64,000 nt of DNA, taken from Clostridia bacterium (lineage in GTDB: Bacteria > Bacillota > Clostridia > Oscillospirales > CAG-272). A program made the position numbers and the translations under genes. The DNA lies in the NCBI GenBank assembly GCA_017550315.1, contig JAFZPN010000167.1, forward strand, positions 2,018 to 66,017, in the 5' to 3' direction. The notes beneath the pieces are model-generated. The model searched no databases, was not told the DNA's origin, and saw nothing but the letters and a program-made list of their open reading frames with translations. Of this stretch, positions 13,643-56,019 are shown in pieces; position 1 is the stretch's first letter, and the number at the start of each line of letters is the position of its first letter.

Positions 13643-13917
13643 GGAGCCTCCGTTTCTTCGGCGGATTCCATTTCGACGGCGGAGAGGGCTGCCTCCGTCT
13701 CCGAAGCGTCGTCCTTGCTTCCCGGATCGCAGACCGCAAGAATCAGAGCAAGGGCGACGAAGAGCAGCAGGATCCAAACGCACCCGCTCGCGAGCTTCCC
13801 CTTCCATTTACGGGTCGAGGTAGAAATGCGCGTCCCCTTGGATCCGACGGAGAAACCGACGCCGCCGGAAGAAGACGCGCGCACCCGGACGGGACCGACC
13901 TTTTTTGAAAATCTCAT
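13639..13917 (-). CDS. DUF4236-like small membrane protein
   Basis: N-terminus MRFSKKVGPVRVRASSSGGVGFSVGSKGTRIS resembles DUF4236, followed by one TM helix and an acidic tail. ATGA overlaps with both neighbours. Confidence 0.6.
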   Translation of the reverse strand: MRFSKKVGPVRVRASSSGGVGFSVGSKGTRISTSTRKWKGKLASGCVWILLLFVALALILAVCDPGSKDDASETEAALSAVEMESAEETEAP

Positions 13918-14543
13918 GCGTGCCTCCTCGTCAAACTCTTTTGCAGCGTCACGGCCATGCCGATCACGCGGATCGTCTCGAGCTCGGGTCCTTGGTACAC
14001 CTGCGTCCGGAATGCCGGATTCGCGGGCGTGAGGATCAAGGTCGACGTCTCCGGGCGGTAGTCGATGTATTTGATCGTCGCCTCGTCCCCGATCAGAACG
14101 ACGGCGATGTACCCGTTTTCGACGACGTCCATTTGCTTTATAAAGACGATGTCCCCGTCGTCGATATGAGCGCCGGTCATGCTGTCTCCCTGCGCGACGA
14201 GGCAGAAATCCGCGTCGATGTCCCCGGACGCCGTGATCCAGGTCTCGCGGTCCTCGTCGGCGAAGATCGGCTCGCCGCACGCAACCTTCCCCAGAACGGG
14301 GAATTTTTTCTTTTTCACCGGATAAAAGCCGGAAAGCACTTCGGAATCATCCGAACGGCCGAGAAGATAGTCGATCGTCACATGGTAAAAATCGGCGATC
14401 TGAGCGAGCGTGGTATAATCCGGCTCTCTTTTCCCGAGCTCCCAGTTTCCGATGGCGGACTGCGTTACATTCAAGGCTTTCGCAAGTTCCGCCTGCGTGA
14501 GTTTTCGCTCTTTGCGAAGTTTAACAAGTCGTGAGGTGTTCAT
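13914..14543 (-). CDS. CI/LexA-like phage repressor (XRE HTH + S24 peptidase)
   Basis: HTH LTQAELAKALNVTQSAIGNWELGKR. S24 motifs VACGEPI and GDSM...DGDIVFIK. Start may be 14549 or 14543. Confidence 0.85.
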   Translation of the reverse strand: MNTSRLVKLRKERKLTQAELAKALNVTQSAIGNWELGKREPDYTTLAQIADFYHVTIDYLLGRSDDSEVLSGFYPVKKKKFPVLGKVACGEPIFADEDRETWITASGDIDADFCLVAQGDSMTGAHIDDGDIVFIKQMDVVENGYIAVVLIGDEATIKYIDYRPETSTLILTPANPAFRTQVYQGPELETIRVIGMAVTLQKSLTRRHA

Positions 14544-14556
14544 AATCATCCCCCTT

Positions 14557-31483: not shown

Positions 31484-33595
31484 ATGGCAGATAAGATCCA
31501 GGGAATCACCGTCGAGATCGGCGGCGACACAACGGGCCTGTCGAACGCGCTGAAAGACATAAACAAGGAATCGAACAGCCTGTCCAAAGAGCTGCGCGAC
31601 GTCGAAAAACTTCTCAAGCTCGACCCGACGAACACGGAGCTCCTCGCCCAGAAGCAGGAGCTTCTTGCAAAACAGGCGGAAACGGCGGCAAAGCGCGTCG
31701 ACGCCGTGAAACAGGCCCAGGACGCGATGAACAAGATGATCGCGTCCGGGGAGATCGAAAAAGGATCCGCGGAGTACCGGAAGTTCGAGCGGGAAGTCGC
31801 GAGCGCAGAGGCGAGCCTCAAGAAGGCCGAGGACGCGCAGAAAGAATTCGGGAAGCAGCATTCTGCGATCGCAAAAGTCAAGGAAGCCGTCGCGGGCGTA
31901 AAGGACAAGCTCGACGATCTCAAGAACACGAAATTCGGGGAGGCTGTCTCCGCGGGCTTCGACGCGATCAAGAGCGCGGCAAAGGCGACCGTGGACGCTG
32001 TCGCCGTGGTAGGAGCAGCCGTCGCCGCCGGGATCGGCGCAGGCGCAAAGGTGATCGCGGACGCGACGACATCCGCCGCCGTATATGCCGACAATTTCGC
32101 GACGCTCTCCGTCCAGACAGGCGTCGCGACGGATACCTTGCAAGCCTACGCCGCTGTCTCGGAGCTCGTCGACGTTTCCACAGAAACGCTGACCGGCTCC
32201 ATGACGAAAAACTTTCAGGCGATGCAGAAGGCGGCGGACGGAAATGAGAAGCTCACGGCAGCTTATCAGACGCTCGGCGTAACCGTCACCGACGAAAACG
32301 GGAAACTGCGCGACAGCGAGACCGTTTACTGGGAAATGATCGACGCCCTCGGGCAAGTCGAGGACGAAACGGAGCGCGACGCGCTTGCGATGGAGATCTT
32401 CGGCAAAAGCGCGAAGGAGCTGAACCCGCTGATCGAAACCGGAAGCGAAGCACTTCACGGCATGATGGAGGAGGCAAAGGCTTCCGGCGCGGTGCTTTCG
32501 GAGGAGACGCTCTCTTCCCTGCTCGAAGTTTCCGACGCGATGGAAAAGGCGAAGACCGGCGCGGAAGCTGTGCAGAACAATTTCGGCGCACTCGGCGCGA
32601 CGCTGATGACCGAGGTGTATTCCGGAATTTCGGAAGTCGAAAGCGCGTTCACCGCGATGATCGCGGCGGCGGCAAACGGCGAAGAAATCACCGACGAAAT
32701 GAAGGAGAATTTCGCAAACTCCATCGTCGAAATGGTCCGCGGCGTGGCCGAGGCGCTCCCTGCCCTGCTTGAGGCCCTCGCAGAGATATTCGAGGCGGCG
32801 CTTGAAGCGATCGGAGAAGCCCTGCCGATGATTTCGGAGACGCTGATCAAATACCTGCCGCAGCTCACGCAGACGATTTTGTCCTTTCTTCCGACGATCC
32901 TCGAGGTGGGCTTGCAGCTGTTCCTTGCCCTGATCGGAGCGCTGCCGGAGATCATCAAACAGATCTGCGCAGCCATTCCTCAGATTATCACGGCACTTGT
33001 GGACGTTCTGCTGTCGGATCAAATGATCAATCAGATCATCGAAGCGGGGATCGAGCTGCTCATCGCGCTCGTCGAGAACCTGCCGCAGATCATCAAAACC
33101 ATCGTCGCCGCGATCCCGAAGATCATTTCGGCGCTCGTCAAAGCGTTCACCGATAACAAGGATAAAATCAAAGAGGTCGGCACCGACCTGATCAAGGGCC
33201 TGTGGGAAGGTATAAAAGATATGGCGGGCTGGATCAAGGAAAAGGTATCGGGATTTTTCAGCGGCGTCGTCGACAGCGTGAAGGACTTCCTCGGCATCCA
33301 TTCCCCGTCGAAAGTTTTCCGGGATGAGATCGGGCGGATGCTCGCGCTCGGCATCGGAGAGGGATTCGAGGACGAGATGAAGGAGGTCCGCGCGGACATG
33401 GAAGACGCGATCCCGACGAGCTTCGACACGGAAGTCAATACCGCATGGGGCGCGATCACGGGAGGTTTCGGCGACGTGTTCGACGTCACAATCCCCTTTA
33501 TGATCGGCGCCGAAAAAATCACGACGGCGGTGTCCCGCGTGCAGTATAACCGGCAGACGGGGCAGGCGCGCGTCCTGGGGGTAACATACGCATGA
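31484..33595 (+). CDS. tail tape measure protein
   Basis: 703 aa, Ala/Glu/Lys-rich helical. N-terminal ITVEIGGDTTGLSNALKDINKE is a typical TMP start. Confidence 0.85.
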   Translation: MADKIQGITVEIGGDTTGLSNALKDINKESNSLSKELRDVEKLLKLDPTNTELLAQKQELLAKQAETAAKRVDAVKQAQDAMNKMIASGEIEKGSAEYRKFEREVASAEASLKKAEDAQKEFGKQHSAIAKVKEAVAGVKDKLDDLKNTKFGEAVSAGFDAIKSAAKATVDAVAVVGAAVAAGIGAGAKVIADATTSAAVYADNFATLSVQTGVATDTLQAYAAVSELVDVSTETLTGSMTKNFQAMQKAADGNEKLTAAYQTLGVTVTDENGKLRDSETVYWEMIDALGQVEDETERDALAMEIFGKSAKELNPLIETGSEALHGMMEEAKASGAVLSEETLSSLLEVSDAMEKAKTGAEAVQNNFGALGATLMTEVYSGISEVESAFTAMIAAAANGEEITDEMKENFANSIVEMVRGVAEALPALLEALAEIFEAALEAIGEALPMISETLIKYLPQLTQTILSFLPTILEVGLQLFLALIGALPEIIKQICAAIPQIITALVDVLLSDQMINQIIEAGIELLIALVENLPQIIKTIVAAIPKIISALVKAFTDNKDKIKEVGTDLIKGLWEGIKDMAGWIKEKVSGFFSGVVDSVKDFLGIHSPSKVFRDEIGRMLALGIGEGFEDEMKEVRADMEDAIPTSFDTEVNTAWGAITGGFGDVFDVTIPFMIGAEKITTAVSRVQYNRQTGQARVLGVTYA

Positions 33596-35298
33596 GCAAA
33601 ATCTATCTCAACAGCGGAGGCGAGAGGCACGCGCTGGAGCACATCGGAGAGGGCGCGGCCCTGACCGAGGCCCTGAGCGGAGAGCAGACCCTCCGCTTCA
33701 CCGTTTTACCGGAGGATCTGAAATTCCTGACGGAAGGGATCCCGCTTCTCGAAAACAACGACGAACCGATCCTGACAAACGACGACCTCGTGATCTACGC
33801 CAGCAGCCTTGCGAAATTCTACGGAGCAGCGCTGGTGGAATTCGAGGGGCAATATTATGATATCGCATCGGTGCGGCTTTCCGGAAATCACCTTGCGGCC
33901 TTCGCGGAGGTGAGCACGGAGCACGTCACCTACAGGCTCAACCGCCCGGAATACAACATTCAAAGCCTCAACCTCGGCGGGACATACGCGCAGGTCCTCG
34001 CGCGGATCCTCGACGGAACGGAATTCACGCCGGGGACGACGCCGACCGGGACGCTCGACACGACCGTGATCGAAGGCGTCACGCGCCGCGAAGCGCTCAA
34101 CACCGTCGCCGAGCTGATGGGCGGGGAGCTGGACTTCGACGGGTGGACCGTCAACGTCGTCGCACATCGCGGAAGCACGCAGCGCGTCGACCTGATGGCG
34201 ACCGGGAATATCTCCGCGGTGGAGGTAGACGAAAATCTCGTCACGGGTGAGACTGCGTACCGCGTCGGCCTGATCCAGCGCGGCAGCCTTGCCGTCGGCG
34301 ACGAGGTGAAGATCGTGTTCCGACCGTTCGGCCTCGACGCCGAGACGCGGATCATCGAAATGACGCGGAATCCGTACAAGGAAACGGAATGCACGATCAC
34401 CGTCGGCGCGCACATCCCGGAGATCACGGACACCTTTGTCGACGTGACGCGGAAGGTGCTTTATAAATCCGAAGCCGATATCACGATCAGTAAATACATC
34501 AACTCCGCCGAGGGGACCGCTGAACTTGTGGCGGCGCTCTCCGGATCTTACGTGACGCAGTCGCAGCTCGAGGATTATCCGACGTTTTCGGAGCTGGACG
34601 CTGAGATCGGCGCATACATCGACGGACAGGAAGGGACCGCGAAGATCATTTCGGCGGCCTCCGGGACCTATCAGACCATCGCAGACATGAGCGACTATGC
34701 GACAACGCAGGCCGTGAGCACGGCGATCACGCAGGCGGTCAGCCCCGTCGCTGCTGAGATCGACATGACGGCGGCGTACGGAAGCGGGACGATCGGGTCG
34801 GAAGTCCGCGCGCTGCTCCAACTTGTCGCAAACCCGGACAGCTCGCAGATCATGCTCAAGGCGTCAAAAATCACGCTGGACGGAGACCTGCACGTGCAAA
34901 AAGTCTTCTACTACGACGGCACAAATTATTATTTGATGCTGACCGGGCAGATGGAAAGCGAAGCAACAATCACGCACGTCGGACCGAAAGACATTGACCC
35001 GAATGCAACAGGAGTCCAAATCGCACAAAGGACTTTCATCTATGGGACGCAGATCATCTTCGGAATCGGCAGTAAAAACCTTTTAACGGACAGCGACAGC
35101 CTTCTTGTAATTCCTTCAACGCATAGAATTATTCCGAATACTGACGAAGTATGGACACTCGGAACAAACAGCAGCATTTTCTCCGCAGTATTTTCAAGAT
35201 ATTACTATTTTCACGACGGAACATATTTGCACACGTCGGCAGGTGGCACGCGCCTGTATTGGCACGACAGCAACGACGACGACAGAAGGATTTTCTGA
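33592..35298 (+). CDS. tail-associated minor structural protein (Tal-like)
   Basis: ATGA overlap with the TMP. N-terminal pattern ...LSGEQTLRFTV...YYDIASVRL...EHVTYRL resembles phage minor structural protein N-terminal regions. Confidence 0.5.
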   Translation: MSKIYLNSGGERHALEHIGEGAALTEALSGEQTLRFTVLPEDLKFLTEGIPLLENNDEPILTNDDLVIYASSLAKFYGAALVEFEGQYYDIASVRLSGNHLAAFAEVSTEHVTYRLNRPEYNIQSLNLGGTYAQVLARILDGTEFTPGTTPTGTLDTTVIEGVTRREALNTVAELMGGELDFDGWTVNVVAHRGSTQRVDLMATGNISAVEVDENLVTGETAYRVGLIQRGSLAVGDEVKIVFRPFGLDAETRIIEMTRNPYKETECTITVGAHIPEITDTFVDVTRKVLYKSEADITISKYINSAEGTAELVAALSGSYVTQSQLEDYPTFSELDAEIGAYIDGQEGTAKIISAASGTYQTIADMSDYATTQAVSTAITQAVSPVAAEIDMTAAYGSGTIGSEVRALLQLVANPDSSQIMLKASKITLDGDLHVQKVFYYDGTNYYLMLTGQMESEATITHVGPKDIDPNATGVQIAQRTFIYGTQIIFGIGSKNLLTDSDSLLVIPSTHRIIPNTDEVWTLGTNSSIFSAVFSRYYYFHDGTYLHTSAGGTRLYWHDSNDDDRRIF

Positions 35299-35689: not shown

Positions 35690-35979
35690 TGGAAAACGAA
35701 AGAATCCTCAAAGCGCGCCTCGGCCTCGCAAAACTGGCAAACACGGAATTCCCCGCCCCGATCCTCGACCTTCTCACGCCGACGCTCGACGCGGCGGATC
35801 CAGTGATCGGCGAAGCGCTGAAACTCGACGCGGCGGAAGAGAGCGAGGAGCTCAAAAAGTTCCTCAAGAAAGAAACGGATATTCCGGTCTGTGTTCTGCC
35901 GAGCCTGCCAGACATCCGCATGACATACATCGATCGGAGAAACCTGCGCGGGATCGTGGAGTTTGAGGAGGTAGTATAA
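35686..35979 (+). CDS. hypothetical tail-module protein
   Basis: ATGA overlap upstream and TAATG overlap downstream. Confidence 0.45.
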   Translation: MMENERILKARLGLAKLANTEFPAPILDLLTPTLDAADPVIGEALKLDAAEESEELKKFLKKETDIPVCVLPSLPDIRMTYIDRRNLRGIVEFEEVV

Positions 35980-37835
35980 TGCCAGACGAAGGAATAAAAA
36001 TCAGCCAGCTCACGCCAGCGTCATCGATCGCCGACACGGACCTCATCCCGAAGGAAAACGCCGGCGGGACGAGCACGGAGGCCGCGACAGCTGCGCAGCT
36101 TGCGAACTATTTCAAGAGCAAGGGCGTCCAGGTCGACAACACCCTGTCGACACCCGGCGCAGCCGCCGACGCTGCCAAAACCGGGGCGGAGGTTACTGAT
36201 TTAAAGAACGCAATTGATTTTGAAAAAATTATATACACTCCCGGACGCGCTATTGTTACAAACGTGGGAGACGGAAACGCTGTTAACCTAACAACGGTTC
36301 CCGGAGGTTCGCAAAACTGCGCCGTTGTAGATTGTGAAGAGGGCAATCTATTTACAATAACAGGCACAGGCGGTTCTTCATATCGTTTGTGGTGTTTTAT
36401 AGATTCTTATAATATTGCATTAGAAACGTCCAAAGTCGGTGTGACAGGAAACAATCTTGTCATCGTCGCTCCGAAAAATGCCGCAAAGCTGATTTTGAAC
36501 AACACAAACACGGAAGAGAGTTATAAAGGGATTGTCGTTGACAAAAAGGTCGTATTTATAGAAGATTCTATTCTGCATAATGACGGAACAAAGTATCTTC
36601 GGTTCTCGACATCATCGTATTGCTTGAATTGCGCAACAGACCTCTCTTCATTAAATCCTACGCAGACATCGAGTGTTTATAGATTCTGCCTTGTGAGTGC
36701 AAGTGCTGGTGATTTGTTTACAATAACGTGTACGGGTGGTGTGTCTCCGCAAGCATACGCATTTATCAACAACAATTTAGAAATACTTGAAAACGCTGGA
36801 CAGAATGTAACACTTACAGATCATGTCATAAAGGCTCCTGCTAATACGGCATATTTAATTATAAACGACGGGTCGGGGACAGGATATGCATTCAAAGGTA
36901 TCACTGGAAAAGCGTACAAGAAATATATAAACGATGTCATCAAAATCCCTGATTCTCCGGTTTCGGATTCTGCCGCCGTGAGCGCATTTGTCGCAAGGAT
37001 GAATGTGTTTGCCGCTCAAATCGGAATGGCAAACAGTACGTTCGTAAATCCTTCCGGGCTTGGCACGTCGAACAGCGTGGAAATTTTGGACGTTATGAAA
37101 ATGGGTTTAATCGCGTCCAGTTATCGTGAAATCCTGCAAATGTGGTCGCTCCGTTCGGCAAGCGTTGTGGTCGGATCGACAGAAACAAGTGTAACAAACA
37201 GCTATCTTGATTATGCCGATCAAGTCATTACAAACGCAAATGTTTTAGGCGGAAAAGGCGGGAGCATCGGAGATCAATACAGGACACAGATTGATATTGT
37301 TGATATATCCGGGAAAACGTGCATCCTGTGTCTGTGCGGCATGAACGCGACGGATTATGGCCAAATTTATACATACGCGAACGACCTTGCCGGGATGCTG
37401 GCGGATGAGATAGAAAACGGATCATACACCGTGCCGACACACTCTGGCGGGCAAGATCTTGCCGGTCTTGTTTCAAGGGGAGGGGCGTATGCGGCGATGG
37501 TTATTCCTGACGGGAATCCTTCTGCCTATTCCGGGAACTATTCAACCACTAAATTAAAAGCGCGGGATCATGTAATTGTGGACGGCGAAAACAATGCGTG
37601 TGTTCCGTGTAGTATTACAAAGGTGCTGTCTGCTATGGTTACTCTGGACGTACTTCCTGATTTGAACGCAATCATTGAAATTCATTCCTCTGATCTCGTT
37701 GGAGGAAGTGGCATCTCGTTAAGTGCCGGGGACAAGATTAGCGCGAAAGATGCGCTTGTGCTTGCGCTTATCAACAGCAATAATGCAGCGGCAACCGCAC
37801 TCGGGCGGACTGCCGGGAGACTGCTTGTGAGGTGA
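35979..37835 (+). CDS. tail fibre / receptor-binding protein with two ~95-aa modules and a C-terminal permuted S11 DD-carboxypeptidase-like domain
   Basis: N-terminal fibre anchor KISQLTPA...ATAAQLANYF. Repeated FTITGTGG...WCFID / FTITCTGG modules. Peptidase motifs are FVARMNVFAAQIGMANSTFVNPSGL (aa 337), KGG (426), SITK (545) and SNN (600). Confidence 0.6.
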   Translation: MPDEGIKISQLTPASSIADTDLIPKENAGGTSTEAATAAQLANYFKSKGVQVDNTLSTPGAAADAAKTGAEVTDLKNAIDFEKIIYTPGRAIVTNVGDGNAVNLTTVPGGSQNCAVVDCEEGNLFTITGTGGSSYRLWCFIDSYNIALETSKVGVTGNNLVIVAPKNAAKLILNNTNTEESYKGIVVDKKVVFIEDSILHNDGTKYLRFSTSSYCLNCATDLSSLNPTQTSSVYRFCLVSASAGDLFTITCTGGVSPQAYAFINNNLEILENAGQNVTLTDHVIKAPANTAYLIINDGSGTGYAFKGITGKAYKKYINDVIKIPDSPVSDSAAVSAFVARMNVFAAQIGMANSTFVNPSGLGTSNSVEILDVMKMGLIASSYREILQMWSLRSASVVVGSTETSVTNSYLDYADQVITNANVLGGKGGSIGDQYRTQIDIVDISGKTCILCLCGMNATDYGQIYTYANDLAGMLADEIENGSYTVPTHSGGQDLAGLVSRGGAYAAMVIPDGNPSAYSGNYSTTKLKARDHVIVDGENNACVPCSITKVLSAMVTLDVLPDLNAIIEIHSSDLVGGSGISLSAGDKISAKDALVLALINSNNAAATALGRTAGRLLVR

Positions 37836-37839
37836 TGAT

Positions 37840-38787
37840 ATGGCAATCTCTAAAATCACATTAAACGGAATGACACAGATGGACGTTACGCAAGATACGG
37901 TCGTTGCAAATCATTTGCTCGATGGTGATACTGCCACGGGATCAGATGGGGTTCGACTTACCGGGACGTTGCAGTCCACGGTTGCTGTTGATACAACACT
38001 TTCAGTTCCCGGCGATGCCGCAGATGCGGCGGTTACGGGCGACAGAATTGGTACTCAGCAATTAGCAACAGGGTTTTCGCGTATAGAATACACATATTTT
38101 AATCAAGCAATTGTGGATAATGGAGGGGATGGATCAACAGTCACGCTCACGCCAGTAGCATCTACGGGTGGATTTAATTCCGTTATTGTTCCGTGTTCGG
38201 AAGGAGATCGGTTCACGATTACAGGAACCGGCGGAGACAGCGTTCGTCTGTGGTGCTTTATCGATTCCGACAACGTGTCTATTCAAAACGCAAAAGCATC
38301 GGTAATTGCAACCAATCTTGTCCTTGCTGCGCCGAAGTATGCGGCTAAACTCATCCTCAACAACAGAAATACCGAGGAATCGTATAAGGGAATAGTTAAT
38401 AAACAGAATATTTCCGACATAAAGACAATCATAAAAAACGCATTCGGAATAGAAGCGATTGACTTCTCAAACTTTTCGTATTGCATGAATTGCGCGACGA
38501 AACCAAGTGCTTTGAGACCCACGCAGACATCGAATGTATATCGCTATGCTTTAACTCCTTGTGTGGCGGGAGATCAGTTCACGATTTGTTGCTCTGGCGG
38601 TATATCACCAAGAGCATATACGTTTTTGGATAGCGATCTCAATATACTAACCCCGCAAGCACCGGCGAGTGCATCGTACACAAATGAGGTTATCACAGCA
38701 CCGACAAATGCGGCATGGCTGATTCTTAACGACAGCACAACAACCGGATACGCATTTAAGGGTGTTACACCTCTGGCAGGGGTATAA
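37840..38787 (+). CDS. second fibre/receptor-binding protein, paralogous to the middle of 35979..37835
   Basis: Shares VD.TLS.PG.AADAA, FTITGTGGDSVRLWCFIDS, AAKLILNN.NTEESYKGIV and YC.NCAT...PTQTS.VYR blocks with the upstream gene. Confidence 0.55.
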   Translation: MAISKITLNGMTQMDVTQDTVVANHLLDGDTATGSDGVRLTGTLQSTVAVDTTLSVPGDAADAAVTGDRIGTQQLATGFSRIEYTYFNQAIVDNGGDGSTVTLTPVASTGGFNSVIVPCSEGDRFTITGTGGDSVRLWCFIDSDNVSIQNAKASVIATNLVLAAPKYAAKLILNNRNTEESYKGIVNKQNISDIKTIIKNAFGIEAIDFSNFSYCMNCATKPSALRPTQTSNVYRYALTPCVAGDQFTICCSGGISPRAYTFLDSDLNILTPQAPASASYTNEVITAPTNAAWLILNDSTTTGYAFKGVTPLAGV

Positions 38788-38886: not shown

Positions 38887-39177
38887 ATGGAAAATCTGAC
38901 AGTACCGGCGATCATCGCCGTCGCATCCTTGGTTTCTCTCGCGCTCGGCATTTCCAGCTTTTTTATCGGGAGAGCGTCAGCCAGGCGAGCCGAAGGAGAA
39001 AAGGCCGGAGCGATCGCATCCGACATCGGCTACATAAAGGCGGGAAATGACGACATCAAGAAAGAGCTGCGGGACATGCGGGACGATCAAACGGAAATCA
39101 AGATGCGGCTCGGTGTCCTTGAAGAGAAGTCAAAGTCACAGCAGCGGCAGATCGACGAAATCAAAAAAGGAGGCTGA
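38887..39177 (+). CDS. membrane-anchored coiled-coil protein (possible holin/lysis accessory)
   Basis: N-terminal TM helix VPAIIAVASLVSLALGISSFFIG, then a charged coiled coil. Precedes the M23 peptidase by 3 nt. Confidence 0.45.
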   Translation: MENLTVPAIIAVASLVSLALGISSFFIGRASARRAEGEKAGAIASDIGYIKAGNDDIKKELRDMRDDQTEIKMRLGVLEEKSKSQQRQIDEIKKGG

Positions 39178-39179
39178 CG

Positions 39180-39800
39180 ATGGCAGTATTACAGCTGCCC
39201 TACCGCGGTCGGATCCGATTCACTTCCCCCTACGGCGACCGCCTCATGAACGGGCGAACAAGCTGGCACAACGGAATCGACCTCGTAGGCCTGGAATCGA
39301 AAACCGTCATCGCGCCGTGCGCCGGTAGGGTGGCCGTCTCGACGATGATCCCGCGGGAGACGGACCTGACGCGGACGTGGGAATGGGGAAATATTATCCG
39401 GATCGACACCGGCGACGGGATGCGGGTGTACCTCTGCCACCTGTCCGAGCGTCTCGTGAACGCCGGTGAAACCGTTTCGGCCGGTCAGCCGGTCGGCATC
39501 GAGGGCGACACCGGGTACACGTTCGGGGCGCACCTGCATTTCGAGGTCCGGAGAGGGGAGGCCGCCGTCAACCCCTGCCCGCTGCTCGGAATCGAAAACC
39601 GCGCGGGCGTCACGCTCGAGGGTGCACCGATCGCAGCGCCGACATGGTACGACGAGGCCTCGAAGTGGGCCGTCGATGCTGGGATACTCAAAGGGACGGG
39701 CGACGGACTCGCGCTGGATGAGCCGTGCACCCGTGCGATGATGGTGACGTTCCTGTACCGGTTCTGGGCGTACATCAAAAACGAAGCGATCACAAAATAA
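39180..39800 (+). CDS. M23 family metallopeptidase with SLH-like C-terminal domain (lysin)
   Basis: WHNGIDL and GDTGYTFGAHLHFEV are M23 zinc motifs. C-terminal WYDEASKWAVDAGILKGTGDGLALDEPCTRAMMVTFLYRF resembles an SLH repeat. Confidence 0.8.
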   Translation: MAVLQLPYRGRIRFTSPYGDRLMNGRTSWHNGIDLVGLESKTVIAPCAGRVAVSTMIPRETDLTRTWEWGNIIRIDTGDGMRVYLCHLSERLVNAGETVSAGQPVGIEGDTGYTFGAHLHFEVRRGEAAVNPCPLLGIENRAGVTLEGAPIAAPTWYDEASKWAVDAGILKGTGDGLALDEPCTRAMMVTFLYRFWAYIKNEAITK

Positions 39801-47204: not shown

Positions 47205-47228
47205 TCTCTGAGTGACTGGACTTGAACC
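47205..47228. repeat. attR core (24-bp direct repeat)
   Basis: Identical to 11746-11769. Covers the tRNA T-arm 3' half, the acceptor 3' strand and 2 nt beyond. Confidence 0.85.
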
Positions 47229-47279
47229 AGCGGCCTCTACCACCCCAAGGTAGCGCGCTCCCAACTGCGCCACACCCAG
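47207..47279 (-). tRNA. tRNA-Pro (anticodon GGG), no encoded CCA
   Basis: Hand-folded cloverleaf. Acceptor CTGGGTG/CACTCAG (C1-G72, A73), D-arm GCGC-AGTTGGGA-GCGC, anticodon arm CTACC-TTGGGGT-GGTAG, T-arm GCTGG-TTCAAGT-CCAGT. Confidence 0.85.
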
Positions 47280-47304
47280 ATCCGATGCTTTTGACAGCCC
47301 TTGT

Positions 47305-53794: not shown

Positions 53795-54193
53795 ATGAAG
53801 GAATATACTCGAAGCCCTCTCCCCGAGAGCCATACCCCCGGCGATCCCGCCACCTGCACCGATCCCTGTCTCTGCGAAATCTGCAGCGCGGTGCTGGAGT
53901 TTCCAACAGGTCACGACTACGAGACGGAAACCGTTCCGCCCACATACACGGACTTCGGCTAAACTTGTTCTATCTGCTCCGTCTGCGAAGACGAATGGCA
54001 GTCCGACTTACTCCCACCCCTCGGCCATAAAGAATCTGGCTGGATCATCGATAAAGAGCCGGATTTCACATCTACAGGCCTGCGGCATAAAGAATGCAAA
54101 CGCTGTTACACCGTCCTTGTCACGGAGACCGTGGACTGCCTGTACCGGAACGTCAGAACGGACAACCACAGCGAAGCGGTTGTCGGACAGTAA
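53795..54193 (+). pseudogene. remnant of a Cys-rich GH-x-W/PTCT-repeat surface-protein gene with an in-frame TAA
   Basis: A single frame reads ...PATCTDPCLCEICSAVLEFPTGHDYETETVPPTYTDFG*TCSICSVCEDEW...PLGHKESGWIIDKEPDFTSTGLRHKECKRCY.... The TAA at 53960-53962 sits where the repeat expects Tyr. Confidence 0.4.
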
Positions 54194-54202
54194 GGAACAC
54201 AT

Positions 54203-54961
54203 TTATCCATAAACAATCCTCAGCTGATCAAGGATGTCTGATTTCGTCTTACCCGGAATATCGAGCTGCTTCAGATCCACAGCCTCCGGTAACATCCTTT
54301 CAATGAATTCATTCATGTCGCTCCGAATGGTATCAGGTAAATTCGGAAGTGGTCCCTGATTAGAATCAAGAAGTTCCGTCAACCTGAAAGCATCATTTTT
54401 GTGCTTGCGGATATTTCTGCTGTCCACAGATACGCCAGCAGCTTTTCGGTCGGAGAGATCTATCCAGGCTTTTGCTTTAAATGGAATCAGGTATGGCGCA
54501 TCCAGTATCGTAACACCGGAAACATTCACCTTTCCTTGCTTCAAGAGACTGTAATAGTCATCGTTCAGCAGGATCGCTGACAAGCTGGAAATATTGTCAT
54601 CCATCGGCAACGGTGTCAGGACAGCATCTTCCGGCAGCGGAATATCGTCCAGCCGTCGTGTGAACAGTTCAATCATCGCCGGGAATTCCTGGGACTTGGG
54701 ATTCGTGAAACGATAGAATTGAGGTGCGCCCGTACTTTTGTTTCGGTGTTCATATCTAGCCGCAGCAATATATTCCCAGAATCTTCTGGCGAAATCTGCG
54801 TCGATTGCTTCGACGATCAGCACGAGATCGATATCCTTTGTGGCCCGGAATTCAAGACCGCTGTCAGACATTAGGAGATCGCAAGCGGTGCCTCCGATGA
54901 TCACATACTGTTCTTCATATCCCTGAAACCATTCTTTGAAGCTGTCAAGTCCTCTTACCAT
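54203..54961 (-). CDS. nucleotidyltransferase, AbiEii/AbiGii toxin family-like
   Basis: NTase motif IIGGTACDLLM...RATKDIDLVL. 17-nt overlap with the upstream wHTH gene. Low-GC context. Confidence 0.6.
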   Translation of the reverse strand: MVRGLDSFKEWFQGYEEQYVIIGGTACDLLMSDSGLEFRATKDIDLVLIVEAIDADFARRFWEYIAAARYEHRNKSTGAPQFYRFTNPKSQEFPAMIELFTRRLDDIPLPEDAVLTPLPMDDNISSLSAILLNDDYYSLLKQGKVNVSGVTILDAPYLIPFKAKAWIDLSDRKAAGVSVDSRNIRKHKNDAFRLTELLDSNQGPLPNLPDTIRSDMNEFIERMLPEAVDLKQLDIPGKTKSDILDQLRIVYG

Positions 54962-55910
54962 CGATATCCTCCCATGTCATTGATAACATCTCTTCTATAG
55001 CATCCTCTACCCGTTCATCCTTGTCATCACAGAAAGAGAGGGCAAGGGATAAGCGGTCAACCATGCCATTGCCGGAAAGTTTCCGAGGGTCATATCTCCA
55101 CAACTGAATCTCGTACTGATCGTCTGTGCTTTGCAGTTTGCGGGTAGATGCTTTTTCCCATGCGGCTATGCTGTCAGAAGCGAAGCATTTCATTCTGGGC
55201 GGGTTTAACATTGTGTATTCAGACAGTGCAGAATACCCGCTCATGAGCAAATCACAAGTTATCGCATCTCTCGGAACATAAATTGTCCGTTTGACAGGAT
55301 TGAGCATGCTCGAACGCGATATGGCAAACAGCTCTTTCGGAGACAATTCGGAAGAGATAATCTTTTGCACACCTCGCTTTTCTGTTTTGACGATCCCCAT
55401 CTCTTCAAGTTGTTTTGAGGCGCGGGAAACGGATGTCGCTGTGAGGCCAAGTTCTTTGACTGCATCACTGGTCAGCATTTCACCGCAGCCGTTATAGATA
55501 TAGAGAAGTAGAAGCAATTGAGAGGAAGGAAGCATATCGGATCGTTCTTGTTCCTCTTTATCCCCGCGTTCCTGCAAGTAAACGGCCATGAACGGCAGAT
55601 AAATCTGTTTTCCATCGACAATAAAAGGGAGATGCGCTTTCAAAAGATATTCCTTTTGGCGATAAGTCAGATGATCCAGCATAAGAACAGCGGGAGTATT
55701 CTCTGCCTTTTCAACTCTTTCCATGTGTTTCTTTACGGCATCTACAGAATCCAGTTTGCTTTTCGGATACATAAAAGACGCTGCTTTGCCGTCGAGCAAT
55801 ACTCTCTGAATTCTGTAGCGAGACTGTATGAAATTCGGTAAGGATTGGGGGTTATTGTCTTCATACATTACGTGAATGCCCATCACACGATTCAAGTATT
55901 CCAAAACCAT
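54945..55910 (-). CDS. wHTH (MarR-like) regulator, AbiEi-like antitoxin candidate
   Basis: Central winged helix LTSDAVKELGLTATSVSRASKQLEEMGIVKTEKRG. Operon partner of the NTase. Confidence 0.5.
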   Translation of the reverse strand: MVLEYLNRVMGIHVMYEDNNPQSLPNFIQSRYRIQRVLLDGKAASFMYPKSKLDSVDAVKKHMERVEKAENTPAVLMLDHLTYRQKEYLLKAHLPFIVDGKQIYLPFMAVYLQERGDKEEQERSDMLPSSQLLLLLYIYNGCGEMLTSDAVKELGLTATSVSRASKQLEEMGIVKTEKRGVQKIISSELSPKELFAISRSSMLNPVKRTIYVPRDAITCDLLMSGYSALSEYTMLNPPRMKCFASDSIAAWEKASTRKLQSTDDQYEIQLWRYDPRKLSGNGMVDRLSLALSFCDDKDERVEDAIEEMLSMTWEDIDGKRT

Positions 55911-55937
55911 GCCCTCCTGTTTATAACGCTTGTTTGT

Positions 55938-55966
55938 ATTTTAACTTATTTTAAGTCAAGAATCAA
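55938..55966 (-). promoter_or_regulatory. candidate promoter of the AbiE-like operon
   Basis: Minus strand: TTGATT (RC of 55961-55966), 17 nt, TAAAAT (RC of 55938-55943). Confidence 0.4.
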
Positions 55967-56019
55967 TAAATAAGTTGTGAATGAATGGTAATTATTCATG
56001 CACAGCATGTCTCTCCAAT

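Follow-up and report, generated by a model that had tools for sequence, protein, structure and literature searches.

The low-molecular-mass penicillin-binding proteins (PBPs) of peptidase family S11, such as the PBP7/PbpG-type endopeptidases (Protein Data Bank (PDB) entries 6muq and 6azi), DacB of B. subtilis (3mfd), K15 of Streptomyces (1skf) and PBP5 of E. coli (1nzo), are periplasmic or extracellular housekeeping enzymes in which the catalytic motifs SxxK, SxN and KTG follow one another in this order along the chain. Cell-wall-active domains are also carried by the tail structural proteins of Gram-positive phages, whose tail-associated lysins contain CHAP, M23, NlpC/P60, lysozyme or glucosaminidase domains. 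Virion-associated peptidoglycan hydrolases are among the subjects reviewed in PMC5380687, and in a survey of lysin domains (PMC11267937) the M15 D-Ala-D-Ala carboxypeptidase is listed, with no mention of S11. Tolerance of the PBP/beta-lactamase fold to circular permutation with joined native termini is exemplified by cp254, an engineered circular permutant of the class A beta-lactamase PC1 of S. aureus (PDB 1ALQ; Pieper et al. 1997, Biochemistry 36:8767, cited in PMC2213659). In the present analysis, a 64,000-nucleotide stretch of Clostridia bacterium DNA (assembly GCA_017550315.1, contig JAFZPN010000167.1, positions 2,018 to 66,017; the whole stretch is hereafter the window) was observed to encode a 618-amino-acid (aa) tail-fibre-type protein in a complete, uninterrupted open reading frame (ORF; 35979..37835, + strand), and its C-terminal 290 aa were confirmed as a genuine natural circular permutant of an S11 (PBP5/PBP7/K15-type) serine DD-peptidase domain. 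Once un-permuted, this domain is homologous to the S11 PBPs over the whole catalytic domain, shares their SxxK, SxN and K(T/G)G residues and internal spacings and, like PBP7 and K15, has no PBP5-type C-terminal beta-sandwich domain; it differs from them in its rotated chain, whose termini follow the SxN helix and in which a linker of ~22 aa connects the old termini, in KGG instead of KTG, and in belonging to a protein with a fibre-type N-terminal fusion and without signal peptide or membrane anchor. By comparison, cp254 is man-made, is a beta-lactamase and not a DD-peptidase, and is not phage-borne, whereas the break in the window domain lies elsewhere, in the all-alpha subdomain after SxN. 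As in the tail-associated lysins, a domain here predicted to be cell-wall-active is part of a tail protein encoded between the tail-tip and lysis genes, although its S11 serine DD-peptidase class is unusual among them and its position is the tip of a fibre and not Tal or the tape measure.

The initial annotation had proposed, from the nucleotide letters and their translations, an apparently circularly permuted S11 domain at 36940-37835, which corresponds to aa 321-618, with all landmarks of the family present in rotated order. A motif check on the 618-aa translation recovered every one of them where it had been placed, namely FVARMNVFAAQIGMANSTFVNPSGL at aa 337-361; GGKGGS at aa 424-429, with lysine K426; CSITKVLSAMV at aa 544-554, including S545 and K548; and INSNNAAATALG at aa 598-609, including S600 and N602, the C-terminus lying 16 aa past N602. 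The motif order is KGG (426), SxxK (545) and SxN (600), which departs from the canonical SxxK-SxN-KTG colinearity, and the spacings that had been described as normal for the fold were also found, with 55 aa from SxxK to SxN and 65-69 aa from NPSGL to K426; the motif set and its positions are far beyond chance. The canonically C-terminal part of the domain is encoded first (aa 330-480; 36966..37418, + strand) and, as delimited by Pfam, PDB chain residues 112-257 and AlphaFold2 (AF2), comprises the FVARMN helix, the NPSGL loop, beta3 with K426-G-G, beta4, beta5 and alpha11. Between alpha11, the ancestral C-terminus, and beta1, the ancestral N-terminus, lies a linker (aa 481-502; 37419..37484, + strand; from AF2, the doubled profile described below and insertion analysis), and the canonically N-terminal part is encoded last (aa 503-618; 37485..37832, + strand; from Beta-lactamase2, PRK11669 and PDB chain residues 3-109), with beta1, beta2, alpha2 carrying S545-I-T-K548, and S600-N-N602 with its helix. 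The corresponding codons, assigned by motif and family conservation, are on the + strand at 37254..37262 for K426-G-G428 (the KTG-box variant), 37611..37622 for S545-I-T-K548 (the nucleophile Ser and general-base Lys of SxxK) and 37776..37784 for S600-N-N602 (SxN).

Reversed placement of the two parts was observed in the searches with curated models. Pfam Peptidase_S11 (PF00768) matched the 618-aa protein with E=3.2e-10 and 40.3 bits against a gathering cut-off of 27.6, aligning aa 335-395 with profile positions 120-179, and Beta-lactamase2 aligned aa 540-613 with profile positions 20-99, which is the reversed order of hidden Markov model (HMM) matches that the initial annotation had foreseen. 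The NCBIfam models PRK11669 (PBP7-type endopeptidase; aa 530-609 with profile 54-136) and PBP4 (aa 332-361 with profile 145-174) were matched by one part each. In a phmmer search of PDB, the PBP7-type DD-endopeptidases 6muq and 6azi were aligned in two reversed pieces, query 532-609 with chain 29-109 and query 334-387 with chain 116-169; when the domain was manually un-permuted, by cutting at aa 519/520 and swapping the halves, the repeated search gave a single colinear alignment (18-167 with 34-169), and the alignments of this construct place the new termini in the loop directly after the SxN helix, in agreement with the loop originally suggested. At the family level, profile A2 was built from 33 native-order sequences and profile A5 from 16 sequences un-permuted in silico. 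A2 aligned with S11 structures in two reversed stretches (profile 26-172 with chain 112-257 and profile 196-298 with chain 3-106), and A5 aligned in one full-length stretch with each structure at E from 1e-27 to 1e-31, including the K15 DD-transpeptidase 1skf (profile 23-269 with 15-258 of 262 residues), DacB 3mfd (chain 5-244, E=2.6e-31), 6azi (26-257), 6muq and PBP5 1nzo (28-256). As a comparison between profiles, A2 against A5 is decisive for the permutation. PF00768 was matched by 67 of 68 long family members; the homology of the permuted domain to S11 is intact, its chain topology differs from every curated model, and the window order, termed type I below, is matched end-to-end by no Pfam, NCBIfam or PHROGs model.

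The same rotation was obtained in structure prediction. With 33 stand-alone permuted homologs as the alignment, AF2 gave one compact domain with a mean predicted local distance difference test score (pLDDT) of 95.6 and a predicted template modelling score (pTM) of 0.93; a model made with a 3-sequence alignment (pLDDT 48) was set aside. In protein numbering, the predicted elements are a helix at 330-347 (FVARMN), beta3 at 421-430 (KGG), beta4 at 434-443, beta5 at 446-454, the long, normally C-terminal helix alpha11 at 457-480, the linker at 481-502, beta1 at 503-508, beta2 at 532-535, the SxxK helix at 544-558 and S600-N-N602 followed by a terminal helix. In the model, the order of the secondary-structure elements is that of a PBP fold read from another starting point.

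With a single metagenomic window, a rotated order could in principle stem from faulty assembly or annotation, or from short motifs brought together by chance, and the probability of this is considered practically negligible in view of the significant HMM E-values, the confident AF2 model of the native order and the distribution of the family; as an assembly artefact, the order is ruled out. Nine independently assembled metagenome contigs, from different samples and assemblers, encode the identical 618-aa protein amid the same neighbouring genes. An exhaustive profile search over 1.84 billion cluster representatives (clusters at 50% identity) gave roughly 20,000 matches, 174 of them at E<1e-30, the best 150 of which were classified, and 123 of these 150 have the type I order, at 22-50% identity. 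A single-stretch, end-to-end match to the permuted profile was observed for 105 of them, ending a median of 3 aa before the C-terminus and preceded by an N-terminal extension with a median of 273 aa, and a further 18 have the same order with an insertion between the halves; including 21 representatives of a second permuted order (type II, below), at least 144 representative clusters are permuted among the top 150 matches. Permuted homologs in other phages, which had been proposed as a check, are present in the cultured Staphylococcus phages UHP46 and ZCSS1 (Herelleviridae) and in many tail-borne cluster representatives. The permuted S11 tips constitute a large family and are no one-off, and the circular permutation first proposed from one sequence is upheld by the reversed HMM and PDB pieces, by the colinearity regained after un-permuting and by an order conserved in more than 120 cluster representatives.

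The 439-aa protein of UHP46 and ZCSS1, annotated as 'serine hydrolase' (XDJ02811.1), is of type I, with FIEEMN...GGKTG...ASMTK...SSN at its C-terminus behind tail-fibre-type repeats; it differs from the window protein, with 25% identity, in its canonical KTG, in its N-terminal region and in lying outside the main tail module of a large myophage, and in the UHP46 genome paper the gene is not mentioned and the permutation is neither annotated nor discussed. The N-terminal ~160 aa of this protein (L003 5473-6792) are common to many Staphylococcus myophage proteins, with tail, major tail, lipase/acylhydrolase and hydrolase-domain tail annotations, and this shared anchor module may carry different enzymatic tips in related phages. 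Another type I member, P0040 (L042 3773-8527), is a 1584-aa phage baseplate-type protein with a DUF4815 N-terminus, an M14 zinc carboxypeptidase domain and the S11 domain, and would combine two distinct peptide-trimming enzymes on one structural protein. No match to cultured phages was obtained by megablast with 24 kb of the window, and scans of IMG/VR with narrow peptide patterns gave one locus per scan. L009, from the locus search with alignment A1 (mostly canonical cellular S11 genes), had a full-length look and proved to be an ordinary DacB.

Three chain topologies were distinguished within the family. Some canonical-looking relatives end ~17 aa after KTG, and for this reason a doubled (tandem) profile, which locates permutation break-points, was searched; each topology covers ~280 of its 280 positions in one stretch. 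The canonical topology runs from beta1 to the C-terminal helix and is represented by the cellular P0003-5, with P0005 spanning 281 positions of the doubled profile, and by the tail proteins P0016 (two copies), P0065, P0113, P0119, P0134 and P0154; type I, with termini just past the SxN helix, by the window protein and 122 other representatives; and type II, which starts at beta5 and ends with beta4, with its break in the beta4-beta5 hairpin (reference aa 442/443), by 21 representatives. These 21 were among 29 relatives first taken as canonical in order, before the doubled profile was applied. Read directly, the type II protein P0019 starts with ...SILVASVLDADSDSARFSAMKQLL..., continues with ASVTK(101), PSSN(156), FITKMN(190) and GGKTG(278), and ends 17 aa later. 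Type II would escape notice because Pfam gives a near-complete canonical match, as for P0026 (profile 25-213 of 239). The canonical tips of phage tail proteins (those named above and an 852-aa protein of locus L038), together with the 'DacC' protein A0A6J5SY61 of BFVD, share the subfamily, the C-terminal position and the catalytic residues with the window domain and differ in their canonical chain order; no paper on canonical-order S11 domains of tail proteins was found in the literature search.

The break of cp254, at residue 254, is taken by us to lie in the beta-hairpin after the KTG strand, and the natural type II break of the 21 proteins is apparently at this engineered site. The entry 1alq is among the A5 matches with an offset of +45 residues relative to wild-type chains, which fits beta5, alpha11 and the linker having been moved to the front. 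With regard to origin, the siphophage tail protein P0016 (L041 7001-10585) contains two canonical S11 domains (~aa 382-630 and 929-1187) and is a possible living tandem intermediate for permutation by duplication and deletion. Given this two-copy protein and the presence of all three topologies in closely related proteins, duplication and deletion within recombination-prone fibre genes is the probable origin of the permutation. A CBM_4_9-like module of ~150 aa occurs in 65 of 154 family proteins, normally upstream of the S11 domain, and in 13 type I members (including P0072, P0089, P0098, P0106, P0109, P0111, P0120, P0124 and P0140) it occupies the exact point at which the old termini meet, between the alpha11-equivalent helix and beta1. 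A tandem ancestor of two CBM-S11 units is not directly supported, P0016 having no CBM_4_9-like module between its copies. A neighbour-joining tree with a Fitch count gave ~5 order changes, on a weak tree that does not fix the number of events.

The catalytic residues are highly conserved in the type I representatives, with S545 retained in 104 of 105 and K548, S600, N602, K426 and G428 each in 105 of 105, and the same pattern was observed in the 18 split type I, the 21 type II and 7 canonical tail-borne representatives. Conservation of these residues at 22-50% overall identity favours catalysis, or at least acylation; the permuted S11 domain is therefore probably an active enzyme, the invariant residues favouring an enzyme over a purely binding module. 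The role suggested in the initial annotation, binding or trimming of the stem peptides of peptidoglycan, is plausible. The middle residue of the KTG box is T in 70, G in 25, S in 8 and P in 2 of the 105 type I representatives, and by this tally the KGG of the window protein is a recurrent family variant. With fair confidence, and judging from sequence, the 618-aa protein is predicted to be a virion-borne DD-endo/carboxypeptidase acting on host peptidoglycan. Its N-terminus would anchor it on the phage tail, and two beta-rich modules (CBM_4_9-like in many relatives) would hold it on cell-wall glycan; the S11 domain would then be acylated via Ser545 by D-Ala-D-Ala-terminated or DD-cross-linked stem peptides, followed by hydrolysis, with Lys548, Ser600/Asn602 and Lys426 participating, and peptidoglycan would be loosened or trimmed locally at the adsorption site during adsorption and penetration.

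In Foldseek comparison with PDB, the top matches were the PBP7-type endopeptidases 6azi and 6muq with probability 1.00, in favour of this prediction; in BFVD, only canonical phage 'DacC' proteins were matched by the same sequential aligner, at half length, and no full-length structural counterpart of the permuted domain was found there. Several observations weigh against the prediction. The Foldseek alignments with PDB span only 153-168 columns, about half of the domain, with template modelling (TM) scores of 0.38-0.40, since Foldseek aligns sequentially. The N-terminal half of the 618-aa protein has no Pfam or PHROGs domain match and no recognised fibre domain. We know of no S11 enzyme with a demonstrated role as a virion-associated lysin. 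In place of KTG, the window protein carries KGG, as does 24% of the family. Lastly, the stand-alone type I gene P0014 (L037 8001-8888) is found among the Mur ligase, ATP-grasp, PGA_cap, LicD, GtrA and glycosyltransferase genes of a cellular cluster for an envelope polymer and not in a phage, and the type I family is therefore not phage-exclusive and its substrate could be another D-amino-acid-containing polymer.

The KGG variant bears on the alternative that the S11 domain is mainly a receptor-binding or adhesion module, which would recognise D-Ala-D-Ala stem peptides and might form a long-lived acyl-enzyme tethering the fibre to nascent peptidoglycan. The Thr of KTG contacts the substrate in known PBPs, and its replacement by Gly might slow turnover; the residues needed for acylation are conserved, and the domain occupies the distal end of a fibre-type protein, the usual place of receptor-binding domains. 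However, KTG is kept in 21 of 21 type II proteins and KTG or KSG in most type I proteins, a turning-over enzyme would be expected to keep SxN and the SxxK lysine fully conserved, as is observed, the separate CBM-type modules of relatives already provide binding, and peptidoglycan is a poor determinant of host-range specificity, so that an adhesin is regarded as unlikely.

The context of P0014 leads to another alternative, in which the enzyme would act on a surface polymer other than peptidoglycan, such as teichoic-acid D-alanyl esters, a peptide-bearing capsule or a secondary wall polymer, as a fibre-borne depolymerase or unmasking enzyme. Enzymes at phage fibre tips are typically depolymerases of surface polymers, and the cluster around P0014 suggests a polymer decorated with peptides or amino acids, with P0014 itself having a cellular role in making or trimming it. 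A precedent is FmtA, described as a PBP-fold esterase acting on teichoic-acid D-Ala (PMC4752606). Against this alternative, every characterised relative that is nearest in sequence (PBP7-type endopeptidases, DacB and K15) is a DD-peptidase of peptidoglycan, and one relative joins its S11 domain to an M14 carboxypeptidase. The M14 family includes murein-peptide peptidases, and a substrate other than peptidoglycan is considered quite improbable.

The placement of the gene within the phage genome is relevant to the predicted virion-borne enzyme. A prophage spans ~13-47 kb of the window, with a CI-like repressor (helix-turn-helix and Peptidase_S24; 13914-14549, − strand), TerL (23258), portal (25939) and capsid (27827) genes, and a Tal-like tail-tip protein (Prophage_tail, PF06605, E=9.1e-11; 33592..35298, + strand). 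Two small ORFs separate the Tal-like gene from the 618-aa gene, which is followed on the + strand by a paralogous 315-aa fibre gene without S11 domain (37840..38787; 54% identical to aa 50-309 of the 618-aa protein); by a 96-aa protein that is hydrophobic in an N-terminal segment and has a tail of charged, coiled-coil-like character (38887..39177), a putative holin by sequence and position without a Pfam match; and by a Peptidase_M23 protein (39180..39800; E=6.5e-21), a putative endolysin with a C-terminal S-layer homology (SLH)-like match at E=0.011, under the cut-off. In this gene order, the 618-aa gene occupies the tail-fibre slot of a siphophage-type prophage, and the tail-fibre placement of the initial annotation is supported by the synteny as well as by the fusion partners of homologs, which include BppU_N, collagen, phage fibre repeats (Phage_fiber_rpt), a YadA stalk, CBM_5_12, CBM_4_9 and M14 carboxypeptidase.

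Comparable arrangements were observed for relatives, such as a 666-aa protein with a type I tip between Tal and Amidase_3 (L039); the 852-aa protein with a canonical tip between Baseplate_J, Gp48 and a gp53-like fibre on one side and a cell-wall hydrolase on the other (L038); the two-copy P0016 between a tape measure, DUF1833 and Laminin_G_3 protein and a muramidase (L041); and a type II gene on a contig that also carries a capsid gene (L040). The stand-alone type I and type II genes P0001 and P0019 lie immediately upstream of holins (L001 and L034), which, together with the nearby holin-like and endolysin genes of the window, would agree with a non-virion protein, either an accessory of the lysis module or a lysogenic-conversion enzyme remodelling host peptidoglycan from within, in aid of lysis or to exclude superinfecting phages. 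Such a role is held to be very unlikely, given that no hydrophobic, signal-peptide-like N-terminal segment was seen in the 618-aa protein (translation judged by eye, no predictor), that this protein is fused to a module in common with the neighbouring fibre paralog, that BppU_N, collagen, fibre repeats and baseplate-type N-termini are fusion partners of homologs, which are located after baseplate or host-specificity genes, and that P0001 is similar at its N-terminus to the product of the fibre-like gene before it.

Upstream of the S11 tip, the N-terminal ~49 aa (35979..36125, + strand) are absent from the downstream paralog, in which similarity begins at the equivalent of aa 50, and are presumed to be a virion-attachment segment. 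The region aa 50-309 (36126..36905, + strand), delimited by BLASTP to the next gene, exhibits a VDxTLSxPGxAADA motif followed by two tandem modules of ~100 aa, an internal repeat detected with E=2e-10, and aa 99-174 have 38% identity to a module of a crAss001 structural/tail protein. The duplication of the ~100-aa module is present in both paralogs, and the 315-aa paralog stops where the S11 domain would start. The fibre genes (35979-38787) have a GC content of 45-49% and a third-position GC content (GC3) of 0.41-0.49, against a GC3 of 0.74-0.82 in the Tal, capsid and M23 genes, and this difference suggests that the two fibre genes are a host-range cassette recently acquired from a lower-GC phage.

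Some further features of the window were also recorded. The CI-like repressor and a tRNA-Pro(GGG) gene (47206-47280, − strand) roughly bracket the prophage, and the tRNA may be the integration site; the weak SLH-like match of the M23 protein is a hint that the wall of the host contains an SLH-anchoring polymer. Outside the prophage, at 54000-56000, there is another patch of low GC (45.8%), where a 320-aa protein with a weak MarR-type match, just under the Pfam cut-off, and a 251-aa protein without family match are encoded beside a seven-transmembrane (7TM) histidine-kinase-like gene.

The fold, the chemistry and circular permutation as a phenomenon are all well known, and it is the swapped S11 forms that are without description in the models and literature searched, full-text searches having returned no description of a natural permuted PBP/S11 domain or of S11 fibre tips. 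To our knowledge, this would be the first natural circular permutation to be described for the penicillin-binding/beta-lactamase fold, for which permutation has until now been a matter of engineering alone (cp254, PDB 1ALQ). A more far-reaching proposal is possible, if doubtful: tail-borne serine DD-peptidase tips would form an unrecognised class, with canonical members and at least two natural permutations (type I and type II), and with termini selected for presentation of the active site from the fibre; the domain would be required for infecting Gram-positive gut bacteria and, being a penicillin-binding fold, would undergo covalent inactivation by beta-lactams on the virion, by which phage infectivity would be modulated. 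Because Pfam, NCBIfam and PHROGs give half-matches only, type I proteins are mislabelled or unlabelled in gut-phage annotation. A sizeable unannotated family of predicted phage tail-tip enzymes is now defined. Few enzyme scaffolds have been studied as much as the penicillin-binding/beta-lactamase fold, and both the engineered site (type II) and a second site in the all-alpha subdomain (type I) seem to have been used in nature, the three topologies among close relatives offering a ready-made system for how permutations arise and what they change. If the domains are active on virions, S11 DD-peptidases would join the repertoire of virion-associated cell-wall enzymes, and a direct biochemical link between beta-lactam antibiotics and phage infectivity would be predicted.

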